64,000 nucleotides of DNA, taken from a virus. Positions 6,372 to 32,412 of this stretch are shown here, piece after piece. The notes under the pieces are model-generated. The model did not search any database. It had not been told where the DNA came from and was given only the letters and a program-made list of their open reading frames with translations. The stretch is taken from positions 32,001 through 96,000 of IMG/VR virus record IMGVR_UViG_3300027969_000063; one strand, written 5' to 3'. The position numbers were made by a program, and so were the translations under genes. The stretch's first letter is position 1, and each line of letters starts with the position of its first letter.

Positions 6372-7481
6372 TCACCTAATAATTTGAATGTCTTTACCTG
6401 AAGTCCAGATTTCGAGTTCTGTCCTTAATCTACCCTCGGTTCTAAGGGTTTCGTATCTATTTATAGCTTTACTCCGCCACCATTCAATAATATTGGCCAG
6501 TTCATGTTTGGCATAGTTTTCACCAGGTAAAAGAGTATCAGTTTTACAGTTCATGTAATCTACTGTATTTTTGAAACCATAGTCCGATGTATAATATCTT
6601 TTCTTCTCTGTCAACTTTTTGGCGTTCTCAATCGTTAGGTTGAAAGTGTCACCTTCAGTTGTTCCTTTTAGAGCGGCTTTGGTTAAGGCAATAATTTTGG
6701 TAAATGTTCTTAACTTTCTACTGGTCGTTGAAGTATCACCACCCAATAAATCTCCAGTAATGTTCTCAACATAATCTTTTAGGTCATGATATCTTTGGCC
6801 GTGCATCATGGGTACCATATCAGATTCGGTCAGACCTCTAAATCGAATATAAGGTTTCATACCATCGTATTGTGATACTGACTTTGTAGAACCATATAAA
6901 CTGGTGGTTTCAAATAGGCAAAGATTCATACCATATTTCTTATTACAGATTTCTCTTACTGTATGGCTGGTACAAATGGCCGATAGAAGTTTGCCACCTA
7001 GGTAATTAAAACCAAATGGTTGAGCTGGTACAATTACAAATCCCATAGCACAAGAAACATTGAATCGTTTGGCAGTATCTTCCTGTTGGATCCAGACCTG
7101 TCCTAAGAGTTCGTTTCTAGGTTTCATATAGATTACTGGTGAACCTAAACGAATGAATCCTAGAACCTTTCCTGAGTTCTTCTCTCTAACTGCCAACTGT
7201 ATATTCTTACCAACTGGAGATTTATTGATGTGTGAAGAGGTAATGGCAAGTAATGTTTCAAATTGAGTATTTGGTATTTCACACACCTCAATATCCATAT
7301 CATTTGGGTGCATGGAGAAATCAGAGAACAAATCATCTTCGGGTGGAAATAAAGAAGATGGCAATTCTGCCACCGACTTTAACTTCTCATCACGCATGTA
7401 TTCTTCGGTACTTCCAATGTTACTAAAATAATCATTGAACACCTTAGAACAATGTAAGGCTTGTTCTCTAGTTAGTATCAT
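6372..7481 (-). CDS. DruA/DUF4338-like protein (paralog 1)
   Basis: IVPAQPFGFNYLGGKLL...ETTSLYG...SQYDG...GLT resembles the DruA GGKL/TTS-x-G motifs. Confidence 0.7.
   Translation of the reverse strand: MILTREQALHCSKVFNDYFSNIGSTEEYMRDEKLKSVAELPSSLFPPEDDLFSDFSMHPNDMDIEVCEIPNTQFETLLAITSSHINKSPVGKNIQLAVREKNSGKVLGFIRLGSPVIYMKPRNELLGQVWIQQEDTAKRFNVSCAMGFVIVPAQPFGFNYLGGKLLSAICTSHTVREICNKKYGMNLCLFETTSLYGSTKSVSQYDGMKPYIRFRGLTESDMVPMMHGQRYHDLKDYVENITGDLLGGDTSTTSRKLRTFTKIIALTKAALKGTTEGDTFNLTIENAKKLTEKKRYYTSDYGFKNTVDYMNCKTDTLLPGENYAKHELANIIEWWRSKAINRYETLRTEGRLRTELEIWTSGKDIQIIR
6458..6465 (-). promoter_or_regulatory. T4-type late promoter TATAAATA inside the upstream gene, serving the nuclease-like gene
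   Basis: Exact consensus ~90 nt upstream of the ATG at 6368. Confidence 0.55.
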
Positions 7482-8857
7482 ACTTTAAAGCCTTCAAAGT
7501 TCTTCTTTTCATGTTTAATTTTATTATTGGCACCAATATGACCGGCATCAGCAAGACCGTGTTGTGCTGATTGTTCAACATCATATAGTTTCATCTTGGC
7601 TCTATCGACACCAATGGTGAATCGTTTGTAATATGTTGGATCATTATAACGATTCTTTAATTGTTTAACCATCATCTGACCCATCTCTTCCAATTCTTCA
7701 GAAGAAATCAACGCAAACATTAGGTCGGCGGTTGCAGGCAACCCGAAACTCTCACTCGTATCCTCCAAGCCTGGATCGCTCGATGTGAATCCGCTTCTGG
7801 TAGTTTGAGTAGCAGATACAATAGGAACATTACATTCAACCGCAAGTCCCCTAAGTTCTTCTGCGATGGACTTGACATAGGTGTAAGAGTTAATATTCGC
7901 ACCAGCTTTGATACGAGAAGAACAGCAGATATTAAGATAATCCACAAAAATAATATCAGGCACGAAAGACCTTTTGAGGTTGAGTTCATTTAGTAAAGTC
8001 CTAAAATGTGTTGTCGATGCAGATGCTGTAGGATATTCTTTGATGATTAATTTACCAGTTACCTTCTCTTTAACCTTGGCAACCTTTTTATCATACATAT
8101 CTTTTGGTAAATCCATTAGGTCATCAAGAGTTACATTCAATAAGTTCGCATCTATTCTTTCTGCAATCTTTTCTTCAGCCATTTCAAGTGTAATGTATAA
8201 CACATTTTTTCCTTGAACCATAGCACCGGCAGCAACATGACACATAAACAAAGATTTACCAACGCCAGTACCAGCAAGAGCAATATTAAGGGTTTTGGCA
8301 GGTAATCCTCCCTTTGTAATTTTGTTAAAACATTCCAAATCAAAGGGGATTCGTTCTTCTTTTCTGTGATAGAATTCATATCGTTCATCGCTGTTCTCTA
8401 AGTAATCATGTCCTACGGAGTTATCGAAACTGACGGCCAAAGCGTCCGATAATATAGAGGGAATTGCACCTTTCTCGTTGCTTTTGTCCTTACCATCGAG
8501 AATTGAAATAGCCCGTAATACACCATTGTATATCGCCTTCTCTTGGCAAAACTTTTCCGTTTTGTCAACAAGCCATTGAACCTCGGTTTCTGTTTTGCTA
8601 CCAGCCTCAATTTCTTGGAGATAAGATTCACAGTTCTTAACTTCGTCATCCGAGAGATTATTCTTTTCTTTGAAGGCAATACTAATTGCTTCAATCGTAG
8701 GCGAAGAATTGTAAGTTTCCGTGAATGATGTAATCTCATTAAATAATGTCTTTTCAGTTCTGTCTGAAAAATATTCAGGCTTTAAAAATGGTAATACTTT
8801 CCTAAGAAAATCTTCATTGTAAATCAGATTCTTTAATATCGTCTGTTCCAGTTTCAT
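7478..8857 (-). CDS. gp41: replicative DNA helicase (T4 gp41, DnaB-like)
   Basis: LAGTGVGKS Walker A, YITLEMAEE, IFVDYL, SESFGLPATAD, KQLKNRY. Confidence 0.97.
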   Translation of the reverse strand: MKLEQTILKNLIYNEDFLRKVLPFLKPEYFSDRTEKTLFNEITSFTETYNSSPTIEAISIAFKEKNNLSDDEVKNCESYLQEIEAGSKTETEVQWLVDKTEKFCQEKAIYNGVLRAISILDGKDKSNEKGAIPSILSDALAVSFDNSVGHDYLENSDERYEFYHRKEERIPFDLECFNKITKGGLPAKTLNIALAGTGVGKSLFMCHVAAGAMVQGKNVLYITLEMAEEKIAERIDANLLNVTLDDLMDLPKDMYDKKVAKVKEKVTGKLIIKEYPTASASTTHFRTLLNELNLKRSFVPDIIFVDYLNICCSSRIKAGANINSYTYVKSIAEELRGLAVECNVPIVSATQTTRSGFTSSDPGLEDTSESFGLPATADLMFALISSEELEEMGQMMVKQLKNRYNDPTYYKRFTIGVDRAKMKLYDVEQSAQHGLADAGHIGANNKIKHEKKNFEGFKV

Positions 8858-14929: not shown

Positions 14930-15166
14930 TTAATAGATAAAAACAACTTCCGTAATGGGGATAACATAATCTTCATCGGCTACCTTAACCGCTTTATTCC
15001 AATTCACCAGTAACTCATCACCAATCTGTACTTCATCAACTTTAGGACCAAGAGCAACAACTTTTGCACGGTCTGGTGCTTCTGTGTACTTTAGAATGAT
15101 ACCTGATGCCGTCTGTTTCTCTGCGGCGATTCTTGTCACAATGATATTATTTTTTAATGGTTGCAT
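14930..15166 (-). CDS. groES: co-chaperonin GroES (Cpn10)
   Basis: MQPLKNNIIV...EKQTASGIIL...AKVVALGPKV...IGD. Confidence 0.85.
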   Translation of the reverse strand: MQPLKNNIIVTRIAAEKQTASGIILKYTEAPDRAKVVALGPKVDEVQIGDELLVNWNKAVKVADEDYVIPITEVVFIY

Positions 15167-15324
15167 AATTTTCTTTCCGCAATAGCTCTTTGAATTTTGT
15201 TGATATGTTTTTTACGAGCACCTTCAAGTAGTTTCTCTAACTGTTCAATATTCAACGGACCTAATCTCTGTTTACCATTTTTGGTCAACATTGGATTTTT
15301 CTTTTTAGATTTTGCAACAGCCAT
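15154..15324 (-). CDS. small basic protein (56 aa)
   Basis: MAVAKSKKKNPMLTKNGKQRLGPLNIEQLEKLL...; AAGG RBS. Confidence 0.55.
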   Translation of the reverse strand: MAVAKSKKKNPMLTKNGKQRLGPLNIEQLEKLLEGARKKHINKIQRAIAERKLCNH

Positions 15325-15341
15325 AATATACCTTTTAAAAG

Positions 15342-15415
15342 TGGAGCGGGATATTGGAATCGAACCAATAACGAGAGGTTGGAAACCTCTAGTTTTACCA
15401 TTAAACTAATCCCGC
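15342..15415 (-). tRNA. tRNA-Gly(TCC) with encoded CCA
   Basis: GCGGGAT/ATCCCGC acceptor stem, D-loop AATGGTA, AGAGG-TTTCCAA-CCTCT anticodon arm, TTCGATT T-loop, U73-CCA. Confidence 0.95.
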
Positions 15416-15419
15416 ATGG

Positions 15420-15477
15420 ACTACATTAGCCACAGTTTCTATGTTTGCTACCGATAACTCGGTTCGTCTAATGCAGT
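15420..15477 (-). ncRNA. three-way-junction structured element between the two tRNA-type genes
   Basis: ACTGCATTAG/CTAATGTAGT closing stem encloses the hairpins ACCGA-GTTA-TCGGT and CATAG-AAA-CTGTG. Confidence 0.5.
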
Positions 15478-15483
15478 TTAAAC

Positions 15484-15550
15484 TGGAGCGGTGGTCTGCT
15501 ATGCTCAGATAATATAAGAGGGTATCTCACATCGTACTATTACACACCGC
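15484..15550 (-). ncRNA. non-canonical tRNA-Gly-like RNA (67 nt)
   Basis: GCGGTG/CACCGC-T-CCA acceptor; 3-bp mini D-arm; 7-bp stem with loop ATACCCT; 4-bp T-stem with non-canonical loop AGCATAG. Confidence 0.75.
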
Positions 15551-15553
15551 ATA

Positions 15554-15673
15554 TTACTTTTCTTTATCTTTTCTTGCCTTACCTTTTGCTTCAATTCTGG
15601 CAAGTAAATCTAATAATTCTTTTTTAGTTAACATTCTACCCCAAGAAGGAGTGTTATTTGCTTTTTCTGTCAT
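15554..15673 (-). CDS. small hypothetical protein (39 aa)
   Basis: MTEKANNTPSWGRMLTKKELLDLLARIEAKGKARKDKEK. Confidence 0.4.
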   Translation of the reverse strand: MTEKANNTPSWGRMLTKKELLDLLARIEAKGKARKDKEK

Positions 15674-15680
15674 ATGTAAC

Positions 15681-15710
15681 ATGATATCATTACTTATACA
15701 TCATTGTCAA
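15681..15710 (-). promoter_or_regulatory. sigma70-like promoter upstream of the tRNA locus
   Basis: TTGACA-18 nt-TATCAT. Confidence 0.5.
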
Positions 15711-15906: not shown

Positions 15907-16419
15907 TTATTGTGGGGGTTTCCAACCTAGAGATTCTGGAACAATCTGACTGTCCGGATCTTGAATGCCAAAGAATACTTCCCACAATTTCTCTTTTATT
16001 GCGAACTTACTAAACAAACCAACTTCTGTTCCAAATGCTTCTATTTCCCAAGGCTGAACCCAATAATCCATACTATCAGAATCAACCTTCTTTCCTTTCC
16101 AACGAGTTAATGTTTCGTTGGTTTCATTATAAGCATATTGCTTAATGTGTGTCATTTCGTGTGCCAAGGTTTTTAATATCTCAGCTGCACCAATTCCAGG
16201 ATGAAGTTCAATTTGAAACTCTCTCGCCTTACGACTTTCATTGTACTCTAAAATTTCAGCGTAACCATAGGCCTCAATCTTAGGATTAAATCTAATCCGT
16301 AGATAGATATTTTCTCTTAACTTTGGTGATATAAGTTGTTCAGCATAAAATACAGCAGCTCGTTTTACATACGGCCTGAAGTGCTTTTTATCGGGACAAC
16401 CAACTATACTTAGCTGCAT
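15907..16419 (-). CDS. putative zinc metallopeptidase (SprT-like, HExxH)
   Basis: TLAHEMTHIKQY...PWEIEA. Confidence 0.75.
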   Translation of the reverse strand: MQLSIVGCPDKKHFRPYVKRAAVFYAEQLISPKLRENIYLRIRFNPKIEAYGYAEILEYNESRKAREFQIELHPGIGAAEILKTLAHEMTHIKQYAYNETNETLTRWKGKKVDSDSMDYWVQPWEIEAFGTEVGLFSKFAIKEKLWEVFFGIQDPDSQIVPESLGWKPPQ

Positions 16420-17280: not shown

Positions 17281-17748
17281 TTACTCATCTTTTGATTTTA
17301 CGGCAATCTTCTTTACCGCATCCTGTGCTTTTACCATGGCTTCTAACCAGATTTTAAGCATACCATTAGTAATTACGGCATCCTTAATCTCTACCTTATC
17401 GGCAAGAGTAAAGGTACGAGAAAAATTACGGTTGGCAATACCTCTGTAGATGAAACTAGCCGGATCTTCTTCAGATTCAACTGCAGAACCTTTGATTACC
17501 AATTTACTACCGTCTAAGGTAACTTCAATATCAGTTTTAGCAAAGCCAGCAACTGCCAGTTCGATGACATACTTGTTGTCTTTTACTTGTTTGATATTGT
17601 ATGGAGGGTAGCTAGTTGTTGCTTTAGCGACTGTTTCAGATACTTCACGGATTTGGTCCAATACGTCATCGAAACCAACTGTGAACGGATCCAAAGTTTT
17701 GTGGAGGGAAGCCCATTGTGGGATTAAAGATAAAGTTGTGCTTGTCAT
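17281..17748 (-). CDS. hsp20: small heat-shock protein Hsp20 (IbpA-like)
   Basis: SYPPYNI, IELAVAGF, YRGIANRNFSRTFTL, NGMLKIWL. Confidence 0.95.
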   Translation of the reverse strand: MTSTTLSLIPQWASLHKTLDPFTVGFDDVLDQIREVSETVAKATTSYPPYNIKQVKDNKYVIELAVAGFAKTDIEVTLDGSKLVIKGSAVESEEDPASFIYRGIANRNFSRTFTLADKVEIKDAVITNGMLKIWLEAMVKAQDAVKKIAVKSKDE

Positions 17749-17754
17749 AGATTT

Positions 17755-17771
17755 CTCCTTAATTAAGCGAG
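17755..17771 (-). promoter_or_regulatory. ROSE-like RNA thermometer hairpin sequestering the hsp20 Shine-Dalgarno sequence
   Basis: CTCGCTT-AATT-AAGGAG: UCGCU pairs with AGGA leaving a bulged G. Confidence 0.65.
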
Positions 17772-17808
17772 TTACATTAAATTAAGATACCCCGAAGGCA
17801 TATCTGGT

Positions 17809-20764: not shown

Positions 20765-21373
20765 TTATTCAAAAATACAATTAATAATCAAGCGATACTT
20801 CTTGTCCGTTGGTATGTTACCGGAATGTATCTGGTTAGAATCAAATATGATAGCACGACCTTTAACTGCTTCTATCCTTTGTTGTATAGTTAACTCTTCT
20901 TTAATAGGCACTCCATTATACTTCTCATTATATAAAATGGTTTCACCGTCAGAATTGTTTACATAGTACAACAATGTTTTTCTATTTCCAATATAACCTG
21001 TTGAATCATATGAAGATTCATCACCATCATCCGTATGTGGTCTTTGTAGTTTTACTCCGACCTGAGGCATTAATAAATTAGCTTTGATTCTTGATGCAGA
21101 TTTTATCTTACCAAATTGATTCTCATAACAAGCAATCAATGGTGCAATATAGTGCAGGTGTGCTGATTTGATTTTATTGTTTTCAATAAACGTATGTCGG
21201 AATTGAATATGTTCAGCCGTTGGTTGATTTGTAAAAAACAAATCTTCTAACTCCGTACTACTACTCACCGAATGTTTATGGAACGACCAAGCGATATCTT
21301 CACCACCCATTAATTTATAAATTGAATCTATATAAACTTCTGGTAAGAAGTTATCAATAATGATTGGTTCCAT
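20765..21373 (-). CDS. 2OG-Fe(II) oxygenase
   Basis: PHTD...LLYYVNNSDGET...GRAIIFDSNQIHSG...R (HxD...H...R). Confidence 0.8.
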   Translation of the reverse strand: MEPIIIDNFLPEVYIDSIYKLMGGEDIAWSFHKHSVSSSTELEDLFFTNQPTAEHIQFRHTFIENNKIKSAHLHYIAPLIACYENQFGKIKSASRIKANLLMPQVGVKLQRPHTDDGDESSYDSTGYIGNRKTLLYYVNNSDGETILYNEKYNGVPIKEELTIQQRIEAVKGRAIIFDSNQIHSGNIPTDKKYRLIINCIFE

Positions 21374-21573
21374 TAATTGGTGGCCAATGCACCGTTAATA
21401 ACACCAACCACTTCACTATAGTTTTGTGTAACGCCAATCGTTGCACTAGGAATACCAATGACAACAACCTCTTCATTGAGTTCTTCATTTTTATGTGTAA
21501 CAACACACAAAACGTGTTTTGGATTAATTGCAACTGGATTACCAGTCATTTTGTCCGTGAATTGAACTAACAT
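21373..21573 (-). CDS. small hypothetical protein
   Basis: AGGAG RBS; MLVQFTDKMTGNPVAINPKHV. Confidence 0.6.
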   Translation of the reverse strand: MLVQFTDKMTGNPVAINPKHVLCVVTHKNEELNEEVVVIGIPSATIGVTQNYSEVVGVINGALATN

Positions 21574-21574
21574 A

Positions 21575-22246
21575 TTATTCTCCTGTTTTAGTTTCTTTTG
21601 CTTCAAATGCGATCCAATATTGGATATCTTCTTTCGTATTCTTGAAATGACCAATACCCTTGAAAGAGATTTCAACATCATAACTTCCAGGAATCATTTT
21701 GATATTTTCAGTTTTGAATACAATATTATACTTCTTGCCATTACCTTCGCCAACTTGGGTCGAGTTTGTGTGTGCGGAATTATCTAAGGCATCAAATGTA
21801 ACCACTTCGATTGCATCACCATCGGACTTGATACCAATGTGTGGTGAACTCAAAACAGAAGATGATGACATGATTGATTTGTAATCTTCTTCAGAAAGAG
21901 TGAAAGAACAATCAACAGAAGGAAGAGTAATCTCTTTTTCTGGAGGAGTAACAATCATCTCCTTTGCCGTCATACGATAGTTTGTTTTTCTCTTACCACT
22001 CTTAAAAATGATATCGGAATCACTAAAATCAATTTCAGAATCTTTAAACAAAGAATGTACCGATAGGAATTGATTCAAATCGTATACACAAAAATCTTGT
22101 GGAAAAGAATCTTTCAGAACGGCTTGTGCCAAAACAGTTTTACCAGATGATACTGTGGTAAGTTTGGTGCCTTTTTTGAATTGAATACCTTGATTGATAC
22201 TTGAAAAGTTTTTCAATACGGTTAGTGTTTCATTTGATAACTTCAT
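21575..22246 (-). CDS. gp45: sliding clamp (gp45)
   Basis: MKLSNETLTVLKNFSSINQ, YDLNQFL, YWIAFE. Confidence 0.95.
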   Translation of the reverse strand: MKLSNETLTVLKNFSSINQGIQFKKGTKLTTVSSGKTVLAQAVLKDSFPQDFCVYDLNQFLSVHSLFKDSEIDFSDSDIIFKSGKRKTNYRMTAKEMIVTPPEKEITLPSVDCSFTLSEEDYKSIMSSSSVLSSPHIGIKSDGDAIEVVTFDALDNSAHTNSTQVGEGNGKKYNIVFKTENIKMIPGSYDVEISFKGIGHFKNTKEDIQYWIAFEAKETKTGE

Positions 22247-22269
22247 TTATTTCTCCATTATGTAAAATT

Positions 22270-22692
22270 TTACTGCTCTTTCGAATACATTATATCATGT
22301 TCATACAGAAACATCAAGCAGCACATGGCGTGTGCCAAGTGATGTAAACCGGATTCAGGATCAAACTTCTCTCCTTCTTTCCAAGCCCATGTATGCCGTT
22401 GCATTGCATCAAAGTACCTACGCTTTGCTTCTGGTACATGGATCCAATTATCTCTTTCATACTTCTGAGCACCAAAAGTTAAAACTTCTGTAAGGGCTTT
22501 TAGCCCGTGAGGGGGAACTAAACCATATTCTAATTTACCACCATCAAATTTACGGCCAATATTTGTATTAAAAGCATCTTCATAACCTGGATGATAAGGT
22601 GCTTCTTCAACTAGTTTGTTACTTGTAGATTCAAAAAGCTTTGTTCCATAAGTTATTTCTTTACCTTTAACACCATACTTTTTTGTTCCCAT
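22270..22692 (-). CDS. dATP/dGTP diphosphohydrolase-domain protein (DUF5664-like)
   Basis: GRKFDGGK...LTFGAQKYERDNW...DPESGLHHLAHA. Confidence 0.8.
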   Translation of the reverse strand: MGTKKYGVKGKEITYGTKLFESTSNKLVEEAPYHPGYEDAFNTNIGRKFDGGKLEYGLVPPHGLKALTEVLTFGAQKYERDNWIHVPEAKRRYFDAMQRHTWAWKEGEKFDPESGLHHLAHAMCCLMFLYEHDIMYSKEQ

Positions 22693-23510
22693 TACATTTC
22701 TCCAACATAATTAGCAACAGCTGGCATATCTCCTTGGAAATGATATGTACCAATGTGTGCAGTTCTCATCCAAGGACATAAGAAGATTTCTCCACCAATC
22801 TTACGCCACATCTGGCAGAACATATAATCTTCTGATAGGTAACGGTCTGAACCACCACCTGTAATAGAATCTTTGGTGTCAATTACTGTATCAAAATAAG
22901 CATGAATGTAACGAGTACCATCAAAGTGTGCCTGACCTACATGGTCTGGTTTATATTTGATTTCAGGATAAGCTTCTTTCATTTTGGTAAATACTTCACG
23001 CTTAATCATCATGAATCCCGTTCCAATTTCCAAAACATCTAAAGGTTCTGTTACACTAAACTGTGCCGTTCCTTGTACTGGATTGAATACAAAGTCACCA
23101 GCAATTTTTTCTAATGTCTGTGGGTCAATGTCAGGATTCTTTATAACACCTTTTTTAATAGACGACCACTTAATTGCTTTTTTAGGATAAGGACCACCAA
23201 TCACATCTTTGTCTAGTGCCAACATGGCAATAACATCCTGTGGCTGGAAGTGTACGTCAGAATCTATAAACAACATATGAGTACATTCTGAACGATTTAT
23301 AAATTCGTCAACAAGGTAATTCCTTGCTCTTGTAATTAGTGATTCATTAAACAGAAATGAAAATTTTATATTTACGCCATATTGAATACAAGAACTCTGT
23401 AAGTCTAAACAGGCCTTCATGTATAGTCCGTGGTTCATACCACCGTACATGGGTGTGGCCACAAATAAACTTTTCTTTTGTAGTTCTTCTTTTTTGATTG
23501 ATATTTCCAT
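22692..23510 (-). CDS. GT-A-fold glycosyltransferase-like protein
   Basis: FVATPMYGG, ESLITRARN, LFIDSD, GTGFMMI, LSEDYMFC. Confidence 0.7.
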   Translation of the reverse strand: MEISIKKEELQKKSLFVATPMYGGMNHGLYMKACLDLQSSCIQYGVNIKFSFLFNESLITRARNYLVDEFINRSECTHMLFIDSDVHFQPQDVIAMLALDKDVIGGPYPKKAIKWSSIKKGVIKNPDIDPQTLEKIAGDFVFNPVQGTAQFSVTEPLDVLEIGTGFMMIKREVFTKMKEAYPEIKYKPDHVGQAHFDGTRYIHAYFDTVIDTKDSITGGGSDRYLSEDYMFCQMWRKIGGEIFLCPWMRTAHIGTYHFQGDMPAVANYVGEM

Positions 23511-23528
23511 TTGTGCTCCGTGAATAGT

Positions 23529-23561
23529 AAAAAAGGGAGTATCTCCTATGAAGAACTCCCT
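23529..23561 (-). terminator. intrinsic terminator after the HTH gene
   Basis: GGGAGT...ACTCCC stem followed by a T-run. Confidence 0.6.
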
Positions 23562-23569
23562 ATGCTAGA

Positions 23570-23833
23570 TTAGGCTAAAGAATAACCTGATTTGATAGCC
23601 GCCTTAACCAAAGCTTTGGTTGGCTTACCCATGCGATAGAAGGCAACCTTCTGACCATCTACAACTTTTTTATTTGTGTAGATTACATGGCCTTCTTGAC
23701 GCAGTTCATCAATACGGGCTGAAACATTGGTGATGCCGAAACGGCGTTGTGCTTGTTTGACGGTAAAAGTGTTGTAACCTTCGGTTTGTTGTAAGGCATT
23801 CAACATCTTTTGTTTAGCAGATAAATTGCTCAT
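23570..23833 (-). CDS. winged helix-turn-helix DNA-binding protein
   Basis: FTVKQAQRRFGITNVSARIDELRQEGHVIYTN. Confidence 0.75.
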   Translation of the reverse strand: MSNLSAKQKMLNALQQTEGYNTFTVKQAQRRFGITNVSARIDELRQEGHVIYTNKKVVDGQKVAFYRMGKPTKALVKAAIKSGYSLA

Positions 23834-23919: not shown

Positions 23920-25179
23920 TTATCGACCAACTTGTGGTAAATATTTCGCTTTGGTATCTTCCCATGACAGGTAAATAAGGTCGTCATAGAAAAGAGTTTC
24001 GTAGGATACCGTATTCTTTTTCTGTAATTGCCGAATACGGCCTTTGGCATACTTTGTTTTCCAAATAGTTGCCAATGCTTGTTCACTGGTATCGAATGAT
24101 TTTACCAATGCCTCATCTGTAATTTCTTTACGGAGAAATTCATTGGTATTATTATAGAGCGGACTAAAATAGATACCACGTTGGTGTTCGGTACGAATCA
24201 ATTCTTTTGGTATACCAAGTTTAGAATAAGCAAAGTTCAATGAACGATTCTTATGATCACGCTTGAGTGGAAGTCCTTGTGTGTTCTTGGCTTCCCACCA
24301 TTCAAAATATTTACGAGTATGGTTTTCTTTAATCCAATCGAATACTAATTTTTTAGTCGATCTACTTGGTTCGAAAGCCACAGAACCAGAAGAAAAACCC
24401 ATAGGAGTCCAATGGTCAAGACCATCATACTGTGAGAGGCCTCCGGTTTTTGTTTTTCCATATAGTGATGTTGTAGTAACGCCGACAAGAGTGTCTCCAT
24501 ATTGCCTCTTCCAATCTGCTTGAACTGTATCAGATAAACACATCAATGCCAATAATTTACCACCCATGTAATTAAAACCAAGTGGTTGTAACGGAACGAT
24601 GGTGGATCCAATCGCTGTATGATTAATCATATGTTGTTGTGTCTTAACATCTCTCGACCATCCGATTGCATTATCTCTCGGAGTCAAGTCCAGGAAGTCT
24701 GAGGAGATACAAATAACACCAAGGTATTTACCTGTTACTTCATCTGTCAAAACATAGAATAAATTACGACCAATGTTGGAATTGTTTTTCATTGTGGATG
24801 AAAATGTACGAATGGCATTCCACTTTTCGGCATCAGGACCATTTGAAAGAACCATAACAGGTTTCAATTTCTCATAATCATCAGGTTGTGTTGGCATCCA
24901 GAAATTTGATTTCATTTTATCAACCAATTTCTTTTGTTCAGGATCAACCATCTGTGTTTCTTGGCCAAACAATGTAGATACTTCTTGAACTGGATATCTC
25001 TCTTTTACTTCACACCACTTTTGATATAAGGTATATTCACGAACATCCATTTGAGAAGCATAAGTTAAGTCCTTGATGAGGACTTCTTTCATGTTACCTT
25101 CATCGATGTGTTCAAAGATAGTGTTCTTTTCAGACCACTCTTTCCATTGTTTTTCTACATACTCAATTGGTGTTGCCAT
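23920..25179 (-). CDS. DruA/DUF4338-like protein (paralog 2)
   Basis: IVPLQPLGFNYMGGKLLA...VTTTSLYG...SQYDG...GFSSG; shares motifs with 6372..7481. Confidence 0.7.
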   Translation of the reverse strand: MATPIEYVEKQWKEWSEKNTIFEHIDEGNMKEVLIKDLTYASQMDVREYTLYQKWCEVKERYPVQEVSTLFGQETQMVDPEQKKLVDKMKSNFWMPTQPDDYEKLKPVMVLSNGPDAEKWNAIRTFSSTMKNNSNIGRNLFYVLTDEVTGKYLGVICISSDFLDLTPRDNAIGWSRDVKTQQHMINHTAIGSTIVPLQPLGFNYMGGKLLALMCLSDTVQADWKRQYGDTLVGVTTTSLYGKTKTGGLSQYDGLDHWTPMGFSSGSVAFEPSRSTKKLVFDWIKENHTRKYFEWWEAKNTQGLPLKRDHKNRSLNFAYSKLGIPKELIRTEHQRGIYFSPLYNNTNEFLRKEITDEALVKSFDTSEQALATIWKTKYAKGRIRQLQKKNTVSYETLFYDDLIYLSWEDTKAKYLPQVGR

Positions 25180-31881: not shown

Positions 31882-32412
31882 TTAAACACTTTCAAATTCA
31901 AAATAATCAAATATAAAAGTGGCATCTGCCGTCATGATGTCATCTGCCGATTGAGAACTATCAAAAATAATATCCGATAGACTAATTGGGAACATGTTAA
32001 TTAATTTAACTCTCAATATGGGGTTGTTTAACGATGATAACACCGTAAGGGTACCATCGGAGTAATACTTTAAATTGGTATTCTTGCCAACATTTTGTAC
32101 ATCAGTTAACCTTTTTCTCTCCTCAAAATTGACTGGAGATGCGATGGAACGGAACCAGTTATGGATATGGCGCCATCCTTCTACCGATTCATCCAGCAGG
32201 AAATGAACGTTGAAAGGGTTATAGGTTATCTTATTACCAGGAGCAAAGTAATCTAATAGTGGACTACTAATAGGAGCTTGACCCAAGTTAATACCAGGTA
32301 AGTTTACCGATTGGCAAAAGAATTGGGATGTACCAATCCTATCAAACGTCAATATAAACTTGGTCGGTTGAAGTAGGTTGGTGTTCTGAGGGGTTCTGTT
32401 AAATGCTGTCAT
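31882..32412 (-). CDS. gp3: tail tube terminator / sheath stabiliser (gp3-like)
   Basis: FFCQSVNLPGINLG, MFPISLS, ADATF; CATAAATA late promoter at 32418-32425. Confidence 0.85.
   Translation of the reverse strand: MTAFNRTPQNTNLLQPTKFILTFDRIGTSQFFCQSVNLPGINLGQAPISSPLLDYFAPGNKITYNPFNVHFLLDESVEGWRHIHNWFRSIASPVNFEERKRLTDVQNVGKNTNLKYYSDGTLTVLSSLNNPILRVKLINMFPISLSDIIFDSSQSADDIMTADATFIFDYFEFESV

Follow-up and report, generated by a model that had tools for sequence, protein, structure and literature searches.

Non-proteinogenic tRNA-Gly isoacceptors of Staphylococcus act as glycine donors for pentaglycine synthesis by FmhB, FemA and FemB, and are thought to be spared from EF-Tu, their glycine going to a non-ribosomal transferase. 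Recognition of tRNA-Gly by the bacterial glycyl-tRNA synthetase (GlyRS) of the alpha2-beta2 type depends on the identity set G1-C72, C2-G71, G3-C70, U73, C35 and C36. tRNAs of compact build can be functional: tRNA-Pyl and mitochondrial tRNA-Ser(UCN) work with anticodon stems of 6 base pairs (bp) and reduced D loops. Mom, a phage Mu protein with a GNAT fold, moves glycine from Gly-tRNAGly to the N6-adenine of double-stranded DNA (PMC13219725); each of the three E. coli isoacceptors can serve as its donor, and it probably reads little beyond the acceptor end (PMC13219725, Silva et al. 2026). The subject of this report is a 67-nucleotide (nt) RNA, mini tRNA-Gly, encoded in a 64,000-nt stretch of viral DNA (positions 32,001 to 96,000 of IMG/VR record IMGVR_UViG_3300027969_000063; hereafter the window). 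Comparison with its homologues indicates that mini tRNA-Gly is a functional phage RNA that descended from a tRNA-Gly and shrank to its present length. We tentatively propose that it is a private glycine donor for a GNAT enzyme of the DruA family, DruA2, whose gene lies on the same strand. The two RNA genes needed for the comparison are the following:

15484..15550, minus strand: 67-nt mini tRNA-Gly, a "type A" RNA in what follows (cloverleaf fold, covariation, covariance-model score 95.6 bits)
15342..15415, minus strand: canonical tRNA-Gly(UCC) with encoded CCA (ARAGORN; Rfam RF00005, 68.6 bits)

Like the staphylococcal isoacceptors, mini tRNA-Gly keeps the GlyRS identity set and has lost conserved features of the D and T loops. 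The staphylococcal tRNAs, however, are cellular and full-sized, have 7/5/5 stems and a UCC anticodon and can be detected by tRNA finders, whereas mini tRNA-Gly is phage-encoded, is missed by ARAGORN and Rfam and has no Fem-family ligase beside it in the record. An earlier note on this DNA, which had proposed a non-ribosomal glycine carrier, had likened it to the tRNAs used by Fem ligases. For that analogy no partner was found: there is no match to Fem-family transferases (FemAB and Acetyltransf_6; PF02388 and PF13480) up to an E-value of 1 in the 105.5-kilobase (kb) record, which is 63% complete (such an enzyme may come from the host). DruA2 emerged as another candidate partner. With tRNA-Pyl, mitochondrial tRNA-Ser(UCN) and the 8/4 and 9/3 tRNAs, mini tRNA-Gly has in common that only one nucleotide joins the acceptor stem to the D stem, that the D loop is small and lacks GG, that the anticodon stem is lengthened and that the variable region is very short. 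Those compact tRNAs decode with a 7-nt loop, U33 and a purine at position 37, whereas the mini tRNA-Gly family varies at positions 33, 34 and 37 and in loop length. The stacked acceptor and T stems of the family are also shorter, 10-11 bp versus 12.

Fold and conservation of the 67-nt RNA

On the minus strand, positions 15484-15550 read exactly as the earlier note had it, and every arm is as described there. The acceptor stem has 6 bp (GCGGTG/CACCGC) and is followed by U73 and an encoded CCA. The D arm (GTA-ATAG-TAC) consists of a 3-bp stem and the loop AUAG; the anticodon arm, of a 7-bp stem with two G-U pairs and the loop AUACCCU, with ACC as the anticodon; and the T arm (TCTG-AGCATAG-CAGA), of a 4-bp stem and the loop AGCAUAG. 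Instead of the canonical 7/4/5/5-bp stems, there are thus stems of 6, 3, 7 and 4 bp. The 7-nt anticodon loop of the window copy contains U33 and has a C at position 37, and neither U54-psi55 in the T loop nor G18 in the D loop is present. The earlier note had listed the TTC of the T loop, the GG of the D loop and the purine at 37 as lost; all three are indeed missing, but the stripping is incomplete. One D-loop G and a GC in the T loop are invariant in the three structural types described below, so an elbow pair like G19-C56 may survive.

The RNA escapes standard annotation tools. ARAGORN did not call it in bacterial or mitochondrial mode, and lowered thresholds led only to spurious overlapping calls; RF00005 gave no match at the site up to an E-value of 10, nor, up to an E-value of 1, for type B, type C or an intermediate form. 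Such a miss by tRNA finders had been predicted in the earlier note. The normal tRNA-Gly(UCC) is put by ARAGORN 68 nt downstream, where the note had placed it. A blastn search against 50,697 phage records returned the normal tRNA-Gly as its sole match, and no description of the RNA was found in the literature searched. Since a conserved, promoter-driven RNA is missed by standard tools, the annotation gap is a real one.

The minimum-free-energy fold of the window copy is the proposed cloverleaf (-18.1 kcal/mol, z-score -2.2, with 6 of 200 shuffled sequences folding as well), so support from single-sequence folding is modest. The comparative evidence is decisive. We fetched 80 loci around homologues of a gene for a 170-amino acid (aa) protein located upstream of the RNA. 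About 40 of them contain a gap-free 67-nt homologue (type A) of 82-100% identity, and about 25 contain a 70-nt relative (type B) at the same place; over 100 viral contigs conserve the RNA with no indels, and the 5' half of type A was found in more than 117. Among 20 distinct 67-nt homologues, all 400 stem cells of the alignment are standard pairs, and 10 of the 20 pairs show double changes; none of 500 shuffles equalled these figures. The covarying pairs are distributed over all four arms (the acceptor and D stems contribute one each, the T stem two and the anticodon stem six of its seven), while controls with slid partners reduce pairing to 34-54%. The RNAalifold consensus of the homologues is the same cloverleaf. 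The earlier note, which had named homologues with compensatory changes as the check to make, had argued from stem pairing against random decay; the compensatory changes in all four stems bear this out and exclude a decaying pseudogene. From pairing and covariation it follows that the 7-pair anticodon stem is real and that the RNA is under purifying selection for its cloverleaf; the selection for this compact shape, as judged from the homologues, is strong.

The wider family behaves in the same way. When 46 distinct type A copies were considered, 899 of 920 stem cells were paired. In type B, 95.5% of cells are paired, five pairs covary and the only unpaired position is a conserved C6-C67 mismatch. 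A marine type C, 65-67 nt long, has the same ends as type A, and it too pairs or covaries. As MAFFT, when aligning the three types, misplaced the D and anticodon arms by a single column, a model-based alignment was used for the second covariance model. In 185,579 bacterial and archaeal species genomes, a search with an 18-mer of the 5' half found 61 contigs, a number at or below chance, and the covariance model confirmed none of them.

One genome contains a 70-nt form that joins a type A loop to a type B T arm. A further member is present in the cultured Pelagibacter phage HTVC008M (L266, KC465899.1 91140-91213), an unannotated 74-nt tRNA-Gly(ACC)-like RNA that scores 32.9 bits with the family covariance model; a survey lists 0 tRNAs for this phage (PMC7029224). 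Like mini tRNA-Gly, it has GCGG...CCGCUCCA ends, an ACC anticodon, a T loop of the AGCG type and no GG in the D loop. Judging by their sequences, the type A, type B, intermediate and HTVC008M forms look like steps of one series of shrinkage from a tRNA-Gly. Mini tRNA-Gly is a natural example of the extent to which a tRNA can be reduced with its synthetase identity kept, which bears on the design of orthogonal tRNAs. A related RNA that ARAGORN does not call is located at 7779-7852 of another cultured Pelagibacter phage, Mosig. Some relatives carry two family members per genome: they stand in tandem behind DruA2 in L236 (3736-3879), L241 and L251 (3756-3899), type B precedes type A in L041 (5037-5179), and an intermediate form occurs with type A in L170 (1501-2019).

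Glycine identity and codon reading

The GlyRS identity set, noted earlier in the window copy, is not only present there but invariant in every sequence compared (46 of type A, 11 of type B and 6 of type C). The positions that never change are G1-C72, C2-G71, G3-C70, G4-C69, U73, CCA, C35 and C36. The marks of decoding are much less constant. Of the 46 type A copies, 37 have A at position 34, 7 have U and 2 have C; a C is found at position 33 in 5 of them and at position 37 in most, whereas every type B copy has G at position 33. In type C and in copies of the L236 type, the anticodon loop is reduced to 6 nt (CUCCAA) or fewer. Fixed ends and a fixed C35/C36, together with drifting positions 33, 34 and 37, are in keeping with a selection that maintains the 3' end and recognition by the synthetase rather than the reading of one codon.

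The mini tRNA-Gly is also kept in genomes that carry both a normal tRNA-Gly(GCC) and a normal tRNA-Gly(UCC). Its retention beside these two tRNAs suggests a selected, probably glycylated RNA that is no ordinary decoder. On the strength of the conserved identity set, mini tRNA-Gly can very probably be charged with glycine, and the pattern of drift makes it probable that its job is other than ordinary decoding.

DruA2 as a candidate user of the RNA

Two proteins encoded in the window match the Pfam model PF14236 above its gathering cut-off of 27 bits, and both also match the PADLOC model of DruA:

23920..25179, minus strand: DruA2, a DruA-family protein of 419 aa, 8.4 kb upstream of mini tRNA-Gly (PF14236, 79.1 bits; PADLOC DruA, 1.1e-16)
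6372..7481, minus strand: DruA1, a second DruA-family paralogue of 369 aa, adjoining a gp41-like helicase gene (PF14236, 33.7 bits; phrog_19197; PADLOC DruA, 4.1e-07)

DruA1 and DruA2 are 35% identical over 170 aa. By their matches to PF14236 and to PADLOC DruA both resemble DruA of Druantia type I (DUF4338, PF14236), but the window genes are located in a T4-like replication module and not in a DruA-E operon. The DUF4338 domain was described as a GNAT domain in an independent paper (PMC10853773), and the papers found give no established function of DruA. The predicted structure of DruA2 (predicted local distance difference test score, pLDDT, 93.8) likewise has a GNAT fold, at residues ~101-363. 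All fold matches of the model belong to the GNAT superfamily, with Foldseek E-values of only 0.01-0.1. In VIA-align, Mom (8bv8_B) came first, with a Z-score of 10.1 and a root mean square deviation of 3.8 over 168 residues, the longest alignment, so that the model of DruA2 is nominally closest to Mom, though level with generic GNAT proteins (see below). A sequence search of DruA2 against the PDB found no linked chain. Like Mom of phage Mu (PF25680, PDB 8BV8), DruA2 is a phage-encoded protein, and its predicted fold is that of a GNAT protein. Mom, however, uses host tRNAs and has no dedicated RNA, and DruA2 is twice as long, belongs to Pfam DruA and has no sequence similarity to it. In one cyanophage record, the DruA-type homologue is annotated as "methylcarbamoylase mom".

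The RNA was repeatedly found close behind the DruA2 gene. As a first search for DruA2 homologues returned only relatives of at least 88% identity, representatives were used instead; the GroES-like neighbour used as bait gave too few loci for use. Behind DruA2 orthologues of 55-74% identity, the RNA follows 19-65 nt later on the same strand in several sister lineages. Loci selected through a distant DruA homologue showed the same layout: in 8 of 8 full-length marine DruA2 orthologues (58-59% identity), the RNA begins 19-26 nt past the stop codon, again on the same strand. A broad alignment-based sample of 80 DruA-family loci added seven more adjacencies from five lineages (60-74% identity, gaps of 19-60 nt), three of them with tandem double copies of the RNA. 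When 80 loci were picked by an 18-mer of the RNA only, DruA2 was directly upstream in 11 and the 170-aa gene in 24; wherever about 7 kb or more of upstream sequence had been fetched, DruA2 lay 7-10 kb upstream on the same strand. In HTVC008M, too, the related RNA is downstream of a DruA2 orthologue on the same strand. As can be seen, the RNA is always downstream of DruA2, either adjoining it or a few kb off.

We therefore put forward, as the reading we favour but hold only tentatively, that mini tRNA-Gly serves as a private glycine donor for the DruA-family GNAT enzyme, by analogy with Mom. The RNA would be transcribed from an early σ70-type promoter, trimmed and then glycylated by the host GlyRS. 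The glycylated RNA would serve mainly outside ordinary codon reading, its user being DruA2, which would take glycine from the 3' end as Mom does from Gly-tRNAGly. Such a carrier, if handled poorly by EF-Tu and the ribosome, would provide a supply of glycine apart from translation, the shortened stack of acceptor and T stems and the changed T arm being indirect signs of weak binding to EF-Tu; the acceptor substrate might be DNA, as for Mom, or something else. More doubtful is the fuller picture, in which mini tRNA-Gly and the DruA-family GNAT protein would form a two-part phage-encoded aminoacyl-tRNA-dependent system, an orthogonal carrier charged by the host GlyRS being kept from translation and used to glycylate DNA, in Mom-like manner, or another target during replication. 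Of the non-ribosomal carrier proposed in the earlier note, the selected RNA, the invariant GlyRS set, the relaxed decoding marks and the retention beside normal tRNA-Gly stand; for a Fem partner the 63% complete record offers no candidate.

If the private carrier is real, it would be the first virus-encoded non-decoding aminoacyl carrier, would extend the 2026 finding on Mom and Gly-tRNAGly and would provide a testable function for the DruA/DUF4338 proteins, a family found in Druantia defence as well. Should the two-part system hold as well, DruA of Druantia and many DUF4338 proteins would be aminoacyl-tRNA-dependent transferases.

A number of observations weigh against the donor reading. On the side of the enzyme, about 50 generic CoA-using GNAT proteins follow Mom at Z-scores of 9.5-8.5, which we count as a tie; no match to the Mom profile PF25680 was found in the record up to an E-value of 10, and a profile built from 40 DruA2 homologues found no Mom chain among PDB chains. 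DruA2 has also retained a motif resembling Q-x-x-G (QPLGFN), a sign that its donor might be an acyl-CoA. On the side of linkage, the RNA is missing within 2.5 kb at 43 of the 50 DruA2-type loci of the broad sample, and in the window core replication genes occupy the 8.4 kb that separate it from DruA2; in the window's clade no DruA gene comes within 3 kb of it. Each of the 5 large relatives in the clade has the RNA together with DruA1 and DruA2, and since all three are universal there, their co-occurrence is uninformative on linkage. The adjacent cases, for their part, are not independent events, because related genomes share gene order, and the adjacency in sister lineages may be one inherited arrangement rather than the outcome of repeated selection. 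The cultured pelagimyophages HTVC008M and Mosig have DruA2 but no RNA within 1.5 kb of it, the related RNAs being 3.9 and 6.5 kb away. The HTVC008M RNA, located just before the phage S21 gene, is moreover full-length, with 5-bp anticodon and T stems, U33 and A37, and is called by ARAGORN.

Finally, the ACC anticodon pairs perfectly with GGU, and GGT makes up 68% of the glycine codons in 53 open reading frames (ORFs) of the window. This leads to the most serious alternative, which we nevertheless hold to be unlikely: mini tRNA-Gly could be an odd-shaped decoding tRNA-Gly that reads GGU and complements the phage tRNA-Gly(UCC), the codons of which, GGA and GGG, total 17.5%. Such a role agrees with the 7-nt loop and U33 of the window copy, with the ARAGORN call of tRNA-Gly(ACC), U33 and A37 in the 74-nt HTVC008M relative, with the location of the RNA within tRNA clusters, often abutting tRNA-Gly, and with the compact shapes tolerated in tRNA-Pyl and mitochondrial tRNA-Ser. 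A decoder of GGU would hardly be expected, however, to vary between A, U and C at position 34 while C35 and C36 stay fixed, the CCC copies being suited to GGG, which accounts for 1.2% of the phage glycine codons. Nor would one expect C or G at position 33, a pyrimidine at 37, sister loops of 6 nt or fewer, an acceptor and T stack short of 12 bp or a lack of U54-psi55. UCC copies adjoin a normal tRNA-Gly(UCC) in L052 and L080, and the RNA persists even in genomes where GGU is already read by a normal tRNA-Gly(GCC). Also unlikely, and ranked directly after decoding, is a decoy, sponge or toxin-insensitive stand-in directed against toxins of host defence that choose tRNA-Gly by its acceptor stem or anticodon. 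The most conserved parts of the RNA are precisely the acceptor end (G1-C72 to G4-C69, U73 and CCA) and C35/C36, and FaRel2 selects tRNA-Gly and tRNA-Thr through acceptor pairs 1, 2, 4 and 5 (bioRxiv 10.1101/2024.07.05.602228), determinants that fit this pattern; tRNA-Thr(UGU) is a frequent neighbour of the RNA, a strong early promoter suits a counter-defence RNA, and there is precedent for phage tRNAs that overcome defences aimed at tRNAs (cited in bioRxiv 10.1101/2024.07.05.602228). On the other hand, pair 5:68 is U-A or A-U, versus the purine-pyrimidine pair preferred by FaRel2, and SAR11 and Fonsibacter hosts are not known to have a toxin of this kind. If anticodon nucleases were the target, a decoy should have a native-like loop, yet loop size varies, and the repeated placement right behind one enzyme gene is left unaccounted for.

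It is improbable that the glycylated RNA is a donor for a user other than DruA2, either a host or phage aminoacyl-tRNA transferase, as the earlier note had it, or the 170-aa protein, which has an HExxH motif. The conserved identity set and CCA would suit any such user, and the 170-aa gene directly precedes the RNA in 24 of the 80 loci found through the RNA. That adjacency, however, is confined to one clade, whereas adjacency to DruA2 occurs in several; the 170-aa protein has weak metallopeptidase-like matches and no evidence of a transferase fold, and for a phage transferase of the Fem kind the record held no candidate. tRNA-like punctuation occurs in phage and organelle transcripts. With this precedent, and given that most relatives have the RNA flanked by a promoter on one side and a conserved small ORF on the other, one could imagine a tRNA-like structure that is never aminoacylated and acts as a processing or stabilising signal for RNase P/Z or as the 5' leader of the small gene downstream. 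We consider this very improbable, as the invariant C35/C36, U73 and encoded CCA are not needed for such a role and the marine-clade RNA stands alone, with its own promoter and a terminator-like hairpin.

The surrounding locus and the source genome

The remaining features of the locus are these:

15681..15710, minus strand: σ70-like promoter, TTGACA-18-TATCAT (11 of 12 matches, TG extension)
15554..15682, minus strand: 42-aa ORF between the promoter and mini tRNA-Gly
15416..15483, minus strand: 68-nt spacer between mini tRNA-Gly and tRNA-Gly(UCC) (predicted fold of -19.4 kcal/mol, z-score -3.15)
15907..16419, minus strand: gene for the 170-aa protein with the HExxH motif (HEMTH), phrog_10499, directly upstream of the RNA in many relatives of the clade
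15154..15324, minus strand: 56-aa ORF (MAVAKSKKK...), located 3' of the RNA or tRNAs in most relatives

Judged by sequence and position, the promoter should drive the 42-aa ORF, mini tRNA-Gly and tRNA-Gly. In most relatives, only about 9 nt separate G1 of the RNA from the end of a promoter of this type (TTGACA-17-TATAGT). In L009 and L011, as well as in L043 and L168, the usual promoter is replaced by a conserved GC-richer stretch with hairpin potential (...ctgttgtgaaacagcaa...ccctgtaaccggtaagcagg), located about 70 nt before the RNA in the first two; this stretch might represent a further small RNA or a site of processing. In four RNA-library runs, which like the related contigs come from lake and freshwater samples, contigs cover parts of the region at depth 2-4, ends and strand being unresolvable and carry-over of DNA possible.

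The 42-aa ORF is limited to the window and a few relatives and matches no family; its ...KDKEK* end is common to the window, L002, L007, L015, L026 and L048. The spacer is not conserved: in relatives, where the normal tRNA-Gly often begins 1-7 nt past the mini tRNA, its place is taken by that short gap or by other genes, and the RNA-library contigs have 4-5 nt there. It is predicted to adopt a stable three-helix fold, and, going by this model, it could be a remnant of another tRNA-like element. The 170-aa protein is widely conserved (138 viral loci); its weak metallopeptidase-family matches are to DUF6782 and Peptidase_M91. Since HTVC008M has its related RNA just before the S21 gene, the 56-aa ORF was considered as a ribosomal protein S21; this was ruled out, as it has no similarity to the HTVC008M protein, nor does it match any family.

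Just downstream of DruA2, at 20765-23833 on the minus strand, there are genes for a winged-helix-like 87-aa ORF, a GT-A-like protein (phrog_1574), a MazG/dATP-dGTP pyrophosphohydrolase-like protein (phrog_801) and a 2OG-Fe(II) oxygenase, a set of predicted functions suggestive of the modification of nucleotides or DNA. The DUF4338 gene of Mosig has a gene with a MazG domain directly 3' of it. Cyanophage S-SSM7 (L445, GU071098.1 147240-151634) has a DruA-like "putative cytoplasmic protein" between gp44 and gp62; its tRNA-Gly(UCC) is found 3.2 kb downstream of that gene, between hsp20 and gp43, in a slot syntenic with that of the window's tRNA-Gly.

All genes of the window are on the minus strand, and the G+C content is about 36%. 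The record as a whole encodes a T4-type DNA polymerase, clamp, clamp loader, UvsX, major head protein and Hsp20, and the closest cultured relatives of its DruA-family protein are those of Mosig and HTVC008M (56-58% identity). The source phage is a freshwater relative of the T4-like phages of SAR11 and most likely belongs with the freshwater pelagimyophages reported in PMC7029224. Directly 5' of hsp20 (17281-17748), at 17743-17807 on the minus strand, the window contains a sub-threshold match to the ROSE_3 RNA thermometer. It scores 23 bits in the window and 36.7 bits in a relative (L083, 273-340), the gathering score being 43, and could represent a thermosensor of the heat-shock type preceding the phage Hsp20 gene.

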